Assembly: GCA_016937995.1 (NCBI GenBank)
Contig: JAFGVM010000098.1
Span: 1-62,397, forward strand
Reading direction: 5' to 3'
Origin: Candidatus Delongbacteria bacterium
GTDB lineage: Bacteria; UBA4055
Length of the DNA stretch: 62,397 nt
Part shown: piece by piece, positions 55,546 through 62,318 of the stretch
Numbering within the stretch: the stretch's first letter is position 1
Layout of the letters: each line of letters opens with the position of its first letter
The notes under the pieces: generated by a model
Told to the model about the DNA's origin: nothing
Database searches by the model: none
Seen by the model: only the letters and a program-made list of their open reading frames with translations
Made by a program: the position numbers and the translations under genes

Positions 55546-57519
55546 ATGGGAAAGTTAACTATTGATTCACTTGATCTGAAAGGAAAGAAAGTTCTTGTAA
55601 GATGTGATTTCAATGTTCCATTGAACGATGATACGACGATCCGTGATGATAAAAGAATTTTTGATGCAATTCCGACTTTGAAGAAAGTCCTTTCTGAAGG
55701 CGGGAAACTTATTCTGATGTCACATTTCGGAAGACCAAAAGGTAAAGTTGTTCCTGAAATGAGTCTAAAACCAGTCGCTGAAAGATTAAAAGACCTTCTC
55801 GGAAAGAATGTTATCCTGGCACCTGATTGTATCGGTAAAGAAGTTGAAAATATCGTTTCCGCAATGAGTGACGGAGATGTAGTTTTACTTGAAAATTTAA
55901 GATTTCATCCTGAGGAAACAGACGGAAATGACAATTTTGCGAGAAAACTGGCAACTTTAGGTGATATTTACATTAATGATGCATTTGGGGTTTGCCATAG
56001 AGCTCATGCATCTGTTTCGATCATAGCGAAATATTTAAAGAATATTGCTTCCGGATATCTTTTAGGCAAAGAAATAGAATATATCGGTGGTGCAATGAGA
56101 GATCCTCAAAAGCCACTGGCTGCAATATTGGCCGGTATTAAAATAGATGGAAAGATCGATGTAATAAATAAATTTATTGAGATCGCAGATAAGATATTCA
56201 TCGCAGGTGGAATTGCGAATACAATGCTTAAAGCTCAGGGTTTTGAAATTGGAAATTCGATCTTTGAAGAAGATAAGATCGATACCGCTAAAGAAATTTT
56301 ATTAAAGGCTGAGAAAAACAATACAAAAATATTCCTTCCTGTTGATATGCTTTGCGGTAAAGAATTTAAAAATGATACCGAAACAATGTATGTTGATACA
56401 GAGAAACAACAACCTGGATGGATAGCAATGGGTGTCGGACCTAAGACAGTGGAACAGTACAAAACAGAACTTGCTGATTGTAAGACACTTCTCTGGAACG
56501 GTCCTATGTCAGTATTTGAATTTGAAAATTTCGCAAAAGAGACATTTGAAATTGCTAAGATCGTTGCTGACTATACTCAGAATAACGGTCTAATTTCTAT
56601 CATTGGTGGTGGAGATACTGCTGCAGCTGTTAAACAGGCGGGATTTGCAGAAAAATTCAGTCATGTATCAACCGGTGGTGGCGCAGCTCTTGAATATATG
56701 GAAGGTAAACATTTGCCGGGAATTGAATCTATAACTGAAAAAGGATTTGAGATGAAAAGAAAATTTCTTATCGCAGGAAACTGGAAAATGAACAAAAACG
56801 TTCATGAATCAATTGAATTTGCTCAGGAACTTACAAAATCAATAGTAAATGATGACAATGTCGATATTATGATCGCACCTACATATACATCATTATATCC
56901 TGTGTACGAAACTATAAAAAAATCTCATATTGAACTTGGTTCACAGGATATTTTCTGGGAAAAATCAGGTGCTTTCACCGGAAAGATCTCTGCTGACATG
57001 CTTAAATCTGCTGGTGTTAAATATACCATCATTGGACACAGTGAAAGAAGACAATATTTTGGAGAGACTGATGCAACTGTGAATAAAAGAACTAAGGTTG
57101 CTTTAGAAGCCGGATTTGTTCCCGTTGTTTGTGTTGGAGAAATTTTAGAAGAAAGAGAAAAAGGAGTTGAAAAGGAAGTCGTAAAAAGACAGGTAGTTGA
57201 AGCTTTGAAGGATATTCAACTTAATGATTTCCTGCATTTTGTAATAGCTTATGAGCCGGTTTGGGCTATCGGAACAGGAAAAACAGCAAGTCCTGAACAA
57301 GCTCAGGAAATGCACGCATATATTCGCTCTATCATTAAAAATATATACAACGAAGAGCTTGCTCAAGCTACCAGAATACTATACGGTGGATCACTGAATC
57401 CTAAAAATGCTCAGGAATTGCTGTCTCAGATTGATATCGACGGTGGTCTTATCGGTGGAGCAGCTCTAAAAGTTGACGATTTCTCAACGATCGCAAAGAT
57501 CGCTCAAGGTATAAAATAA
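55546..57519 (+). CDS. pgk-tpiA: Fused phosphoglycerate kinase / triosephosphate isomerase
   Basis: PGK motifs RCDFNVP, SHFGRP, LLENLRF, GGGDT, HVSTGGGA continue in frame into TIM motifs AGNWKMN, GHSERR, AYEPVWAIGTG, YGGS. Confidence 0.95.
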   Translation: MGKLTIDSLDLKGKKVLVRCDFNVPLNDDTTIRDDKRIFDAIPTLKKVLSEGGKLILMSHFGRPKGKVVPEMSLKPVAERLKDLLGKNVILAPDCIGKEVENIVSAMSDGDVVLLENLRFHPEETDGNDNFARKLATLGDIYINDAFGVCHRAHASVSIIAKYLKNIASGYLLGKEIEYIGGAMRDPQKPLAAILAGIKIDGKIDVINKFIEIADKIFIAGGIANTMLKAQGFEIGNSIFEEDKIDTAKEILLKAEKNNTKIFLPVDMLCGKEFKNDTETMYVDTEKQQPGWIAMGVGPKTVEQYKTELADCKTLLWNGPMSVFEFENFAKETFEIAKIVADYTQNNGLISIIGGGDTAAAVKQAGFAEKFSHVSTGGGAALEYMEGKHLPGIESITEKGFEMKRKFLIAGNWKMNKNVHESIEFAQELTKSIVNDDNVDIMIAPTYTSLYPVYETIKKSHIELGSQDIFWEKSGAFTGKISADMLKSAGVKYTIIGHSERRQYFGETDATVNKRTKVALEAGFVPVVCVGEILEEREKGVEKEVVKRQVVEALKDIQLNDFLHFVIAYEPVWAIGTGKTASPEQAQEMHAYIRSIIKNIYNEELAQATRILYGGSLNPKNAQELLSQIDIDGGLIGGAALKVDDFSTIAKIAQGIK

Positions 57520-57527
57520 TTTTTTTA

Positions 57528-57553
57528 CAGGGAACGCAGATCTGCGTTCCCTG
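57528..57553. repeat. Palindromic hairpin after pgk-tpiA (REP-like or terminator)
   Basis: CAGGGAACGCAGATCTGCGTTCCCTG perfect inverted repeat. Confidence 0.6.
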
Positions 57554-57586
57554 CAATTTATTAACCCAAAATAATAACATTTATCA

Positions 57587-57615
57587 TTGACAATATATCG
57601 TTTTTTCTATATTCT
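57587..57615 (+). promoter_or_regulatory. Candidate sigma70 promoter of the selenoprotein array
   Basis: TTGACA (57587-57592), 17 nt, TATTCT (57610-57615). Confidence 0.6.
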
Positions 57616-57662
57616 TGAAGTGTAGTAAAAATTCTATGTAAATTAAAATGGATTTGTGCTTG

Positions 57663-59135
57663 ATGAAAAAGATATTTTTAATTTTAATTTCAATTTATTT
57701 CTCTCTAACGGGAGCTTATAACGTGGGTGACACAGTAGATCCTGCTGATAATATCAGCTGGACTGATAATAGCGGATACTCTTCAAACATTTTTAAAGAA
57801 GTTTTTTTTGGTAAACCTGTTATGATATTTTTCGGTCAGGATGGTTGAAATACCTGTTATCAGGCGGCGCCTTACTTACAATACTGGTGGATCGAGGAAT
57901 TCGGTCCAGACGCAATGAGTACTTATGCTGGAAAATCCTACTGGCTGGCTACATATAACTGGGAAAATCAGAATTATCCGGTAGATACACGGGTTTATAT
58001 ACAGTCTGGTGGATTTTCAAACGGATATGTTCCTCTGTTCGTTATTGTTGGATATAAAAACAAAGTTTACTGGGACCATAATTCAGACGGATTCAGAGGT
58101 GCTTTGAGGCAAGCTATTGACGAAATAGTTGCAGAAGGTGTATGGGTCAAAAACCCTGTGGCCGATAAAGTTCTTCTCTACGGCGAATCACAGGATATAG
58201 ATGTTTCAACAGTATTCGCAGATATTGACAATAACCCGATAAGTGTTTCTATCGTAAGTAACGAGAACCGTGATATCGTCTCGGCCGAATTGAATGGTAA
58301 TGTTATTACTATAACCGCAAACGGCAATAATTCCGGCAGTTCGATGATTGTGATCAGAGGAGCTGCAGGTGAATTTGATGAGACAGATCAATTTGAAGTA
58401 AATGTTTTTGATCCGGATGCATATTACATTGAGGACTTTGAAACGGGAGATTTCTCAAGGATCCCGTGGAAGTTCAGCGGAAATGCAGAATGGGTTATCG
58501 ACTCTGCTTCTCCATTTGAAGGATCCTTTTGTTCCGGATCTGAAGATATTTCCGATAATCAGAGAGCGGATATGACAGTAAATATAGATTATGTGGTTTC
58601 AGGAAATGTATCCTTCCAATATAAGATTTCATCAGAGGGAAATTATGATTTCTTAAAGTTTTATATAGACGGTGTGGAGAAAGGTAAATGGAGTGGAATT
58701 ACGTCTTGGAAAGAAGTTTCATTCCCGGTCACAACAGGAACTCATAACTTCAGCTGGTCATATCAAAAGGATTCATCTGCAAGCTATGGAAATGATCGAG
58801 CCTGGGTAGATAGAATTGTGTTCGAGGGGGGTGTTTACACATCAATTGAACCTGAGTTATCCGGATTAATAGATAATTTCAAATTATACCAGAACTACCC
58901 AAATCCATTTAATCCTGTTACAGACATTTCATTTTCTCTTAACACACAAAATCATGTTAAACTTACAATTTTTAATCAAAAAGGTCAGCTGGTTGATAAT
59001 TTGATCAACAAAGTTCTCAACAGAGGTCTTCATCAGGTCAAATTTGATGCTTCAGATCTTAACAGTGGGATTTATTATTATACTCTAACAATTAAAGACC
59101 GTACAGAAACAAAAAAAATGATACTAATTAAGTAA
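57663..59135 (+). CDS. Putative secreted selenoprotein 1: signal peptide, UNTC redoxin domain, Ig-like, adhesin-like, T9SS sorting domain (490 aa, Sec62)
   Basis: ORFs 57648-57848 and 57915-59135 are in the same frame, separated only by TGA 57846-57848; readthrough gives GKPVMIFFGQDG-U-NTCYQAAPYLQYWW; C-terminal QNYPNPFNP...KKMILIK. Confidence 0.88.
57855..57880 (+). other. Candidate bacterial SECIS hairpin 1
   Basis: AGGC-GGC-GCCT apical stem-loop with TGT/ACA lower pairing; loop begins after a 17-nt spacer from the TGA. Confidence 0.7.
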
Positions 59136-59147
59136 TAGGGATAAATT

Positions 59148-60647
59148 ATGAAAAAATTTACATTTATCATGACTCTTCTGATGCTAATGAACTTATTCGC
59201 AGTTTACAATGTCGGTGATACAGTAGCTTCAAGCGATAATATCAGCTGGACCGATAATTATGGTTACTCTTCAGATATTTTTAAGGAAGTTTTCAAGGGT
59301 AAACCTGTAATGATCTTTTTCGGTCAGGACTGGTGACCTGGTTGTAATACGGCGGCGCCGTTATTGCAACAATGGTATGACGAGGAATTTGGACCAACGG
59401 GAACAGTTAGTGGTGGTGTTTATGCCGGAAAATCATACTGGTTGTGTACCGAGAATTGGGGGAGTATCTATCAGAATCCTTCACAAAATTATCCAATAGA
59501 CCTTGACGTTTACTATAATTCAGGGGGATTTTCCAACGGTTACGTTCCTTTGTTCATTGTAGTGGGATTTCAAAACAAAGTTTACTGGGATAATAACTCA
59601 TCTAATTTTAGAGCATCATTAAGACAGGCAATCGATGAGATGCAGGCCGAAGGTGTTTATGTTGATAAACCTGTATCCGACGAAAAACTGATCTTTGATG
59701 AATCACAGGACTTTGATCTTTCTCGTGTTTTCGTTGATATTGAAGGAAATCCTGTTACCGTAACTCTCGAGAATAACAGTGATCCGGGAATAGTGACAGC
59801 AGTTCTGAACGGAGATATCCTGACAATTACAGCCAACAATACTACATCAGGAACTTCAACAATCACCATTAAGGGAACTGCCGGTGAATTCTTTGATACA
59901 GATGAATTCACTATTTCAGTATTTGATCCTGCTTTGTATAATATTGAGAATTTTGAAACGGGCGACTTCAATAAATTCCCATGGAAATTCAGTGGGACAA
60001 AGAACTGGATAATAACCACATCTTCACCATATGAAGGTTCAAATTGTATTCGTTCGGCTGATATAAACGGTAATCAATCAGCTGAGACTTACTTAAACAT
60101 GGATTATCCTTCAGATGGTTTTATTTATTTTTGGTACAAAGTATCATCAGAGGGAAATTACGATTTTTTCAAATTCTACATTGACGGTATTGAAAAAACA
60201 CGTGTCAGCGGATCATCGACGTGGATCTATGCAACTTACCCTGTTTCTGCAGGATCTCACACATTCAAATGGAGATATGACAAAGATATTTCAGGTGACA
60301 GTGGAAGTGACTGTGCCTGGGTCGATCTTATTACTTTTGAGGGAGGAATGCCAACTTCAATTAACAATACAGAAGCCAGAATTCAGAAGTTAGAGCTTTA
60401 TCAGAATTACCCAAATCCTTTTAATCCGGCAACAGATATTTCTTTTTCTTTGAATAAGTCCGGACCTGTAAAACTTTCTGTATATAATCACACCGGTCAA
60501 TTGGTAAGTGATTTAGTTGACGGAACTTTATCAGAAGGTATGCATAAAATAAATTTTAATGCTTTGGACTTGAATAGTGGAATTTATTTTTATACATTAG
60601 AGACTAGTGAAAATTCTATATCTAGAAAGATGATGTTAATTAAATAA
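59148..60647 (+). CDS. Putative secreted selenoprotein 2: signal peptide, WUPGC redoxin domain, Ig-like, adhesin-like, T9SS sorting domain (499 aa, Sec63)
   Basis: ORFs 59148-59336 and 59364-60647 are in frame across TGA 59334-59336; readthrough GKPVMIFFGQDW-U-PGCNTAAPLLQQWY; C-terminal QNYPNPFNP...RKMMLIK. Confidence 0.9.
59341..59370 (+). other. Candidate bacterial SECIS hairpin 2
   Basis: GTTGTAATACGGC-GGC-GCCGTTATTGCAAC: 13 bp stem (one G-U pair, one bulged U), GGC loop after a 17-nt spacer from the TGA. Confidence 0.8.
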
Positions 60648-60659
60648 AAGGAAAGGTGT

Positions 60660-62318
60660 ATGAAGAAATTTTTATTTTTTTTCACGTTCTTGTTAACCCT
60701 GAACTTGTTCGCTGCATATAATGTCGGTGATACAGTTCTTCCTGAGGACAATCTGTCCTGGACGATTGAAGGTCCTGCTGGACATTTAGAGATAGGACAG
60801 TCTTCAAATATTTTTAATGAAATAGCAGGTAACAAGAAAGTTGCAATGATATTCTGGGGAGGAGCTGGTTGAATCAGCTGTCATGAGGCGGCGTCTCTTT
60901 TACAACCTTTATGGGAAGATATTTATCAACCAGGAGCTACTGGTTCAGCTGGTGCATATGCTGATAAATCCTACTGGATCGCTTCATATGACTGGAGTAC
61001 GGATACGAACCCTCTTCCTATGACATACCCTTATGATACAGCTTTATACGGCGTAGCTCTAACTTCTGGATTTGCCACAGGATCTGTTCCAACTTTCGCT
61101 GTAATTGGTTTTGAAAATAAAGTTTATTTTGATTCCACGCAAATATTGCCGGAAACTGTTGATGATATGGTAACTCGTCTTACTACAGCATTGAATCTTG
61201 CCATCGATGAATTCCCTCGTGATGGTGTCTACATCAACTCAAGAATTGATACTAGATATTACACTGCCGGAGATACTGAAGATATTGATGTAAGCAATCT
61301 TTTTGGAGAATTTAACGATTTAGATATAACATTAACACTGGAAGGTAACAGTGACCCTTCACTGGTTTCAGCTGTTTTGAACGGTACTACTTTATCGCTT
61401 GAAGCATTAGGTTCTGGATCAACTCCGGCTGTTATAACACTTAAAGGTGAATCGTCATATAATTTTAAAACCTTTGATCTGAATGCATATTCTAACGATC
61501 CAACAGCATTTTTAGGTATGAACCAAGGATTTGAAGAAACTTTATTTCCACCACCATATTGGGAAATTAAGTATAACACTGCAGCCGACGGTGGATTGAA
61601 CGGAGCCAGTCTTATAGACCCTGATCCATTGGAGGAAGCCTGGTTTGATAATACTCCGTCAGACGACTATCTAGGCTCAGACTATATCCATTCCGGAAAT
61701 AATTCTGCAGCAATAAAATATTGGGCACCGGAATTTAACTGGTTGATCTCACCTGAGATGCAATTAGACTACGATGATTATTTCTTGAAATTTTTCATTT
61801 GGTATGACAATAGCTATGAGACAATATTCCATGTTCTTGTTGATGATGGAACAAAAGGCTGGATTAGTATTTTAGATTACGATGGAAGTTCACCTAACAA
61901 TCATTTTGATTCTGAGGTTGAATTGAGCCTGAGTGCATATCATAACCAGACTATCAGAATTGCATTTGTTCACGAATATAATGATGGTATGGATGTTGCA
62001 CTCGATGATATTACTATTACATCACCTACCGGAATTGAAACACAAGCTACACCTAATACAATCTCATTAGTTCAGAACTATCCTAATCCATTTAATCCTA
62101 ATACACTAATAAGCTTTTCTTTAGTTAAAAATAGCAACGTTAAGCTTAATGTGTATAATCAGAATGGTCAGTTGGTAAGTACATTAATAAATAAAGAAAT
62201 GGGATCAGGACATCATTCCGTTAATTTTAATGCATTCGGTTTAAGTGCAGGAATTTATTATTATACATTAACTACTGACAAAAATTCTATCAGTAAAAAG
62301 ATGATACTTCTAAAATAG
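60660..62318 (+). CDS. Putative secreted selenoprotein 3: signal peptide, UISC redoxin domain, Ig-like, cleaved-adhesin-like, T9SS sorting domain (552 aa, Sec71)
   Basis: ORFs 60660-60872 and 61020-62318 are in frame across TGA 60870-60872 with no other stop; readthrough KKVAMIFWGGAG-U-ISCHEAASLLQPLW; C-terminal QNYPNPFNP...KKMILLK. Confidence 0.88.
60879..60904 (+). other. Candidate bacterial SECIS hairpin 3
   Basis: GAGGC-GGC-GTCTC apical stem-loop with TGT/ACA lower pairing; loop after a 17-nt spacer from the TGA. Confidence 0.72.

Follow-up and report, generated by a model that had tools for sequence, protein, structure and literature searches.

In the selenocysteine insertion sequence (SECIS) elements of Escherichia coli fdhF and fdnG, the apical part of the hairpin binds SelB, the lower part is melted by the ribosome, and the loop opens with a G. 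The consensus model of bacterial SECIS elements, as set out in the available part of its source, comprises an apical loop of 3-9 nucleotides (nt), an upper stem of 4-16 base pairs (bp) and 16-37 nt between the UGA and the loop, with a G in position 1 or 2 of the loop, or in both, most often as GG or GU, and an energy of -7.5 kcal/mol or lower; the ribosome opens the lower part of the element ahead of the arrival of the UGA in the A site, and the SECIS elements within one bacterial genome normally differ (PMC13188914). The same part of this source describes selenoproteins with a UxxC motif (U, selenocysteine or Sec), under the names 'Prx-like thiol:disulfide oxidoreductase' (PF00578), 'Redoxin family protein' (PF08534) and 'Thiol-disulfide isomerase-like' (cd02966) (PMC13188914). 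In this work, we analyse three tandem genes at the end of contig JAFGVM010000098.1 of a Candidatus Delongbacteria bacterium (62,397 nt, the whole of which is referred to as the window), each of which is open only if a single in-frame TGA is read through, and each of which carries a short hairpin with a GGC loop shortly after that codon. Our results indicate, with a probability that we place at about 0.9, that each hairpin acts as the bacterial SECIS element of its own gene, with Sec insertion and SelB binding predicted from comparison of sequences. The hairpin is of an ordinary type, among the shorter of bacterial SECIS elements, and most likely specific to one family of thioredoxin-like, probably secreted proteins rather than a signature of the organism.

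The three genes lie on the same strand with 12 nt between neighbours, and coding potential is present both upstream and downstream of the TGA in all of them (Table 1). By tblastn alignment and analogy to the paralogues, the real start of gene 1 is probably the ATG at 57663 (MKKIF...). The initial annotation of this region, made from the letters of the sequence, had described a GGC loop starting after exactly 17 nt past each UGA, closing stems that differ in sequence yet all pair, including an A-U to C-G double change and a G-U pair, a 13-bp stem with a bulged U in copy 2, and an Ala-Ala pair encoded as GCG GCG throughout. This description was accurate in all three genes, coordinates included, and the long stem of copy 2 was reproduced as the minimum-energy fold. 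The codon choice is indeed uncommon, as GCG accounts for 8.4% of the 31,662 Ala codons in genome open reading frames (ORFs) of at least 300 amino acids (aa), where GCA (42.1%) and GCT (40.0%) dominate; likewise, GAG represents 27% of Glu codons, in a genome with 34.6% G+C. The 17-nt spacing is partly forced by the indel-free protein motif U-x-x-C-x-x-[A/E]-A-P, and is therefore not independent evidence. Since copies 1 and 3 are, in addition, thermodynamically weak, as detailed below, the case rests on comparison among homologues.

A profile of the N-terminal domain detected members in 13 of the 16 Delongbacteria genomes, where 48 of the 57 matches contain one TGA; one of these 48 is a Cys protein (WCKPC) whose TGA is its own stop, which leaves about 47 Sec forms among the 57. 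In a second phylum, reached through a stray match (G037), 12 of 14 genomes contain the family, with one TGA in 25 of 26 matches, and altogether more than 70 homologues keep a conserved reading frame both before and after the TGA. For covariation analysis, the UGA and the following 45 nt were aligned without gaps in 33 distinct A-A-P or E-A-P members from 12 genomes; sequences in another register were left out, namely 11 sequences resembling the paralogue on contig C71 of the genome (itself included), the paralogue on contig C3 and three shorter relatives (L061-L063). Across helix columns 15-20/24-29, 84.8% of the cells were paired versus 65.8% in shuffled alignments, and the covariation score was 0.459 versus 0.146, a value reached in 0 of 500 shuffles, while sliding the partner strand by 1-3 columns gave scores of 0.018-0.200. 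RNAalifold independently predicted the same helix.

The signal is displayed by pairs that involve wobble positions. Pair 17-27, between the second position of codon 5 and the wobble base of the Pro or Ser codon, is CG in 24 sequences, AU in 7 and UA in 2, and is never unpaired (n = 33); pair 20-24, between the second position of codon 6 and the wobble base of the second Ala, is CG in 20, AU in 9, GU in 1 and another combination in 3. Further, the wobble base of codon 5 is G in 32 of the 33 sequences and that of codon 6 in all 33. A recent paired change is provided by gene 1, which has CAG...CCU where its orthologue in a sister genome has UCG...CCG. Results from the second phylum were similar: the 20 matches read, from a total of 26, all display U-x-x-C-x-x-E-A-P and the apex GGA-GGC-UCC at +17 with 4-8 pairs, and an alignment of 19 distinct sequences showed an 8-bp helix paired in 90.1% of cells versus 72.8% in shuffles, with a covariation score of 0.471 versus 0.141 (0 of 500 shuffles). 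The loop opens with GG in 33/33 and 19/19 aligned homologues. A metagenome scan aimed at Cys forms yielded 7 loci, all of which encode the Sec form and have a GGC hairpin of 6 bp. Taken together, covariation at synonymous sites in 33 + 19 distinct homologues bears out the suggestion in the initial annotation that selection acts on the RNA, and the element has travelled with its gene family through at least two phyla.

Members outside these alignments are also informative. The C71-like forms have a conserved hairpin of their own (GAGGC/GCUUC or GGGA/UCCC), with the loop at +19 to +21. In the C3 paralogue, a protein with a type IX secretion system (T9SS) tail, Sec closes the redox motif (C-Y-S-U) instead of opening it, and the hairpin GAUGCC-GGA-GGCGUC has its loop at +20 from the UGA, that is, it moved along with the codon. 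Where E-F-P replaces E-A-P in the family, the loop is AGUUUC or GUU, so the loop letters follow the amino acids. L061-L063 (G004:C55, G007:C223 and G004:C58) are T9SS-tailed relatives of about 282 aa with the motif 'G-U-G-A-C ... D-A-P', and no convincing common hairpin was found past their UGA.

The rival explanation that survives best, highly improbable as we consider it, is that the complementarity is a by-product of the [A/E]-A-P protein motif and of chance GC-rich codons, with no RNA function. The amino acids do fix the core pair G15-C21 and the GC of the loop, and the small energies of the bare hairpins in copies 1 and 3 are in keeping with this explanation. However, the signal lies at synonymous positions, as the nearly invariant wobble G of codons 5 and 6 occurs despite the low G+C content and the low use of GCG and GAG in this genome, and covariation links the wobble bases of Pro and Ala to the bases with which they pair. 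Moreover, Cys forms with the same amino acids do not have the hairpin. Six Cys forms with readable DNA were obtained from a sweep of 401 genomes and the phylum search; none of them (0/6) has the hairpin, contrary to the possibility, raised in the initial annotation, that Cys homologues would keep it equally well, and the contiguous pairs around +17 amount to 2, 2, 0, 0, 0 and 0. Three of the six keep [A/E]-A-P with the usual A/U-ending codons of the GCA/GAA type (for instance, GCA GAA GCU CCA in genome G007), four are devoid of any consensus-type hairpin between +12 and +26, and one (L121) belongs to a tandem array with two Sec-form paralogues, both of which carry a hairpin. Additionally, 12 more distant TlpA-like Cys genes did not show the hairpin, with at most 3 contiguous pairs. 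Two other Cys forms, P0089 and P0093, are represented by their protein sequences. In our reading of these comparisons, the amino acids are explained by the protein and the codon choice by the RNA.

Several observations weigh against the identification of the hairpins as SECIS elements. The minimum-energy fold of copy 2 is the 13-bp stem with the bulged U (-18.4 kcal/mol, z -2.42, equalled by 3 of 200 shuffles), but those of copies 1 and 3 (60 nt) lack the GGC hairpin (z 0.45 and -0.25), so that the folding past each UGA expected in the initial annotation was obtained for copy 2 and not for the other two, which favour different free folds. Correspondingly, free 50-mers form the GGC hairpin with a probability of about 1.0 in copy 2, and of 0.18 and 0.003 in copies 1 and 3, whose bare hairpins reach only -2.9 and -3.1 kcal/mol; when forced into the hairpin within a 50-nt stretch they reach -7.7 and -6.9 kcal/mol, the latter being above the published limit of -7.5, with the reservation that the stretch folded in the published model may differ. 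As to the comparative evidence, conserved amino acids determine part of the loop as well as two core pairs out of three, so that not every column is informative; a hairpin of some kind occurs at +12, outside the range of the model, in two GC-rich Cys forms; and kinship among the sequences inflates the significance of the shuffle tests. For this last reason, changes of state were counted on a tree of the N-terminal domain in which the nine SECIS-bearing codons were masked, giving at least 7 changes for pair 17-27 and at least 3 for pair 20-24; this was a quick tree, with 10 of 30 inner branches well supported. Finally, in 7 of the 33 homologues the exact register does not dominate even when the ribosome is mimicked as described next, 3 of them having a one-base shift (loop GGUC or GCUC) and 4 pairing elsewhere.

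The competing hairpins of copies 1 and 3 occupy bases 4-9 past the UGA. That of gene 3, a 6-bp hairpin followed by a U-rich run, has a terminator-like pattern, which is probably a chance match, as 3 such sites were found in the region versus 2.9 expected; its alternative pairing is also kept in two orthologues. When pairing was forbidden for the UGA and the following 10 nt to mimic the ribosome, with this footprint length as an assumption, the probability of the GGC hairpin rose to 0.75, 0.95 and 0.99 in genes 1, 2 and 3, respectively, and it exceeded 0.5 in 26 of 33 homologues versus 21 of 33 in the free state. From this model we infer that ribosomal unwinding of the first nucleotides would let copies 1 and 3 form the GGC hairpin. 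A search of window positions 57500-61200 against Rfam gave nothing above chance (best match E 1.3, all below the gathering scores).

If each hairpin is the SECIS of its gene, the following mechanism may be proposed, along the lines of the general scheme described in the available part of the source (PMC13188914). The approaching ribosome would unwind the first ~10 nt past the UGA, leaving at the mRNA entrance a short apical stem-loop whose stem begins 11-13 nt past the UGA and whose loop begins at +17; SelB-GTP-Sec-tRNA(Sec) would then bind this apex through the exposed G that opens the loop, and deliver Sec to the UGA. As the comparison shows, the hairpin is encoded in codons 5-9 past Sec, over the motif x-[A/E]-A-P-x, with the amino acids set by the protein and the structure built by synonymous choices: the wobble G of codon 5, the wobble G of codon 6 as the first loop base, the Ala wobble base pairing with the second position of codon 6, and the Pro wobble base pairing with the second position of codon 5.

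The assembly (2.75 Mb, 97% complete) encodes the machinery for selenoprotein synthesis, including selB (334 bits), selA (549 bits), a selD gene that carries its own in-frame TGA, and one tRNA-Sec, which is the sole tRNA with anticodon UCA in the genome. A screen of in-frame TGAs left 5,998 candidates past the length filter, 1,808 by hexamer score, which was too permissive, and 121 in which both sides were the best of six frames; from these, 16 plausible selenoprotein genes were picked by motif, most of which were then supported by Pfam or NCBIfam. The screen was not exhaustive, and a Sec near a gene end or a formate dehydrogenase could have escaped it. The 16 candidates comprise the three window genes; their paralogues on contigs C46, C71 and C3; a lipoprotein with a GUASC motif; SelD; Prx; BCP; three FlpD/MvhD-type proteins; and HesB-like, UshA-like and porin-like proteins. 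Prx and BCP matched AhpC-TSA with ~131 bits each, and the three FlpD/MvhD genes matched with 157-183 bits. All 16 candidates have a consensus-type hairpin of -2.9 kcal/mol or lower with the loop start at +15 to +23, a filter passed by 115 of 4000 random TGAs (2.9%).

With these genes at hand, we give almost no weight to the proposal, made in the initial annotation, that the hairpin is the lineage-specific SECIS of the organism, such that SelB would recognise UGA-N17-GGC and the pattern would retrieve the whole selenoproteome. The constancy of the GGC loop at +17 in ~60 family members from two phyla speaks for it. Nevertheless, only 13 of the 134,539 TGAs on both strands of the genome show N17-GGC with at least 4 flanking pairs, and long open frames are present at just 4 of them, corresponding to the three window genes and the distant fourth paralogue on C46; likewise, a covariance model built from 33 family members matched only these four paralogues (E <= 3e-5), the next match having an E value of 0.55. 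SelD, Prx, BCP, the three FlpD genes, the HesB-like and UshA-like genes, and the C71 and C3 paralogues differ in stems, loops and spacing, the E-F-P members have other loops, and the hairpin stems of the 16 candidates share no sequence, their loops being GGC, GUG, GGA, AGUU, GUUU, GGU, GUC, GGUA and GUCU. The anticipated matches of a genome scan in known selenoprotein genes did not appear, as SelD, Prx, BCP and FlpD carry unrelated hairpins that follow the generic consensus only, and the usefulness of the motif as a ready-made query was thereby lost. This refutes a lineage-wide motif and leaves the SECIS function untouched, since a single bacterial genome ordinarily contains dissimilar SECIS elements according to the available part of the source (PMC13188914). 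What remains constant across the genome is the distance from the UGA and the presence of GG or GU at the loop start, which matches the generic consensus as given there (PMC13188914). Thus, the part of the initial annotation that stands is a SECIS-type hairpin under RNA-level selection in a genome with Sec machinery.

Hardly credible is a third alternative, in which the TGAs are real stops of split or decaying genes, or are read as Trp or Gly, and the hairpin serves in pausing, attenuation or another role: gene callers stop at the TGA, public entries begin after it, one of them (P0062) shows W at the Sec position, presumably because the caller read TGA as Trp, and the competing hairpin of gene 3 is terminator-like, though at the chance frequency given above, but the frame is conserved on both sides of the TGA in the homologues, the TGA aligns with a catalytic Cys, the sole tRNA with anticodon UCA is tRNA-Sec, and the scarcity of in-frame TGAs with coding on both sides (121/5,998, 16 plausible) indicates that TGA is not generally a sense codon.

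The products of the three genes were also characterized. C63, C66 and the cis-Pro P134 are invariant in the N-domain alignment, and the N-domain of gene 2 was predicted by AlphaFold2 with a pLDDT (predicted local distance difference test) of 86.5 and a helix that starts right after residues 63-66. Its best Foldseek matches in the PDB, from E 3.7e-6 and TM (template modelling) scores of ~0.5, are extracytoplasmic thiol-disulfide oxidoreductases of the TlpA/ResA/Etrx/CcmG type and thiol peroxidases. In Pfam, gene 2 matched AhpC-TSA with 24.3 bits versus a threshold of 26, and genes 1 and 3 gave no match, while a relative from the second phylum (L021) matched AhpC-TSA with 73.7 and Redoxin with 66.4 bits across the Sec position. 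Being below the Pfam threshold and linked by profile, the window proteins are divergent relatives of AhpC-TSA/Redoxin, and not members by the test of Pfam. No NCBIfam selenoprotein model exceeded its curated cut-off on the N-domain, the sole match being TsoB with 14.8 bits versus 805.

At the other end, genes 1, 2 and 3 matched the sorting domain TIGR04183 with 41.6, 43.5 and 46.7 bits, respectively, versus a cut-off of 23; gene 1 also matched Por_Secre_tail (42.8 bits), and gene 3 matched NF038128, a choice-of-anchor J model, with 41.7 bits. The genome encodes T9SS machinery, namely the PorU sortase (557 bits versus 420) and the SprA translocon (649.9 bits summed, versus 200), and hydrophobic N-termini are visible in the translations (MKKFTFIMTLLMLMNLFA...), which would correspond to putative signal peptides. 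Genomes contain up to 6 paralogues of the family. The middle module of ~240 aa together with the T9SS tail recurs behind heads of the cyclophilin-type peptidyl-prolyl isomerase (PF00160) and M14 carboxypeptidase (PF00246) types (P0017-P0044, P0055-P0064) in proteins of Delongbacteria and Cloacimonadota, which suggests a common surface 'stalk' with interchangeable heads. The nearest public proteins (P0002-P0016) have 404-427 aa at 82-86% query cover and bear the name 'T9SS type A sorting domain-containing protein'; since the public gene models start after the UGA, they are devoid of the signal peptide and the active site. On balance, we lean towards the view that the three genes encode T9SS-exported selenoproteins, displayed on or released from the cell surface, in which a TlpA/redoxin-like head with Sec would sit on a stalk-plus-sorting module. 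Our literature search found no paper joining selenoproteins with type IX secretion, although supplementary family tables could already hold these genes, and nothing joining Delongbacteria with selenocysteine; the available part of PMC13188914 makes no mention of secretion or signal peptides.

Other loci of the genome were noted during this characterization (Table 1). The C46 locus has an operon-like arrangement, with a lipoprotein gene followed by that of a 543-aa DUF6029 protein (158 bits) and by the fourth T9SS-tailed paralogue, and a Cys-type TlpA-like gene lies directly upstream of the row; the lipoprotein has no family match, and carries an in-frame TGA in 'DGUASC' with a hairpin loop AGUU at +20. 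The three FlpD/MvhD-type genes lie within 10 kb and have Sec in 'G-U-HPGDCHY', two of them with the hairpin AUUACCA-GGU-UGGUAAU at +23 and the third with the loop GUC. The porin-like gene encodes a 354-aa outer-membrane protein (Porin_O_P, 58.1 bits) with a weak match to ExtI, a 'selenite/tellurite reduction operon porin' (40 bits versus a cut-off of 150); its in-frame TGA lies in 'TTGGGUSGEE', followed by the hairpin GUGG-AGUU-CCAC at +16, and it is a possible selenoprotein porin. In the window itself, a strong terminator-like hairpin separates gene 1 from the preceding gene, a 657-aa ORF whose translation, judged by eye, reads like a fused pgk-tpi.

Table 1. Positions of the genes, codons and RNA elements discussed in the text. 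Positions refer to the window, except those preceded by genome and contig.
Feature	Position	Strand	Description
Gene 1	57648..59135	+	Predicted selenoprotein: hydrophobic N-terminus, thioredoxin-fold UxxC domain (GUNTC), middle module, T9SS C-terminal sorting domain
Gene 2	59148..60647	+	Paralogue with the architecture of gene 1; redox motif WUPGC
Gene 3	60660..62318	+	Paralogue, GUISC; a choice-of-anchor J domain precedes the T9SS tail
In-frame UGA, gene 1	57846..57848	+	Predicted Sec; Cys-form homologues have the first Cys of CxxC at the aligned position
In-frame UGA, gene 2	59334..59336	+	Predicted Sec; same alignment basis
In-frame UGA, gene 3	60870..60872	+	Predicted Sec; same alignment basis
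Putative SECIS apex, gene 1	57862..57872	+	AGGC (57862-65), GGC loop (57866-68), GCCU (57869-72)
Putative SECIS, gene 2	59341..59370	+	13-bp stem with bulged U (59361), GGC loop (59354-56); core CGGC (59350-53)/GCCG (59357-60)
Putative SECIS apex, gene 3	60885..60897	+	GAGGC (60885-89), GGC loop (60890-92), GUCUC (60893-97); one G-U pair
Ala-Ala codons, genes 1, 2, 3	57864-69; 59352-57; 60888-93	+	GCG GCG
Competing hairpin, gene 3	60877-60892	+	GCUGUC-AUGA-GGCGGC, then U-rich run
Terminator-like hairpin	57528-57553		Between the preceding gene and gene 1
Preceding ORF	55546-57519	+	Phosphoglycerate kinase-like in the first two thirds, triosephosphate isomerase-like in the last third
Fourth-paralogue locus (L041)	G000:C46, ~7310 nt	-	Lipoprotein, DUF6029 protein, T9SS-tailed paralogue
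C3 paralogue	G000:C3:6741-8286 (L046:742-2286)	+	T9SS-tailed paralogue
FlpD/MvhD-type genes (L083-L085)	G000:C11:32076-41995	-	Three genes
Porin-like gene (L086)	G000:C11:24181-25242	-	Candidate selenoprotein gene

The three hairpins and their homologues represent a clean case of an RNA structure kept by the choice of synonymous codons, with Cys controls from the same family, including one located beside Sec forms in a shared locus. As each gene carries its bacterial SECIS within its own codons, the hairpin is useless for fishing out the remaining selenoproteome, and the generic hairpin test is passed by about 3% of the random TGAs of the genome. The gene family, apparently T9SS-exported, nearly always with Sec, multi-copy and mis-annotated, matters more than the hairpin itself: if the proposed export is true, whole candidate phyla use selenium chemistry outside the outer membrane and the T9SS can carry selenoproteins. 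Corrected gene models would give the catalytic domain back to dozens of genes.

With respect to known systems, the GGC loop of the window hairpins has 3 nt versus 4 nt in E. coli fdhF and fdnG, at a similar distance from the UGA, and a bulged U as in these E. coli elements is present only in copy 2 and its closest relatives, without being conserved in the family. Compared to the consensus (bSECISearch) model, as covered in the available part of its source, the window hairpins likewise lie in the coding region right after the UGA, with a 3-nt loop that starts with G[G/U]N at 17 nt, and their stems of 4, 13 (bulged) and 5 bp, and of 4-8 bp in homologues, fall within the consensus range; in contrast, copies 1 and 3 are short and weak, with an unfavourable free fold, and -7.5 kcal/mol is clearly reached only by copy 2 (PMC13188914). 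The window genes also have the UGA at a Cys position, in a genome with selA, selB, selC and selD, as in the consensus. As for the proteins, the thioredoxin fold, the Sec in the first position of UxxC and the cis-Pro are shared with the PF00578, PF08534 and cd02966 selenoproteins described in that part of the source, which differ from the window proteins in that the N-domain of the latter is fused to a middle module of ~240 aa and a T9SS sorting domain (PMC13188914). Finally, the C-terminal sorting domain of the window genes is like that of T9SS type A cargo (TIGR04183/PF18962), from which they would be set apart by a selenoprotein head.

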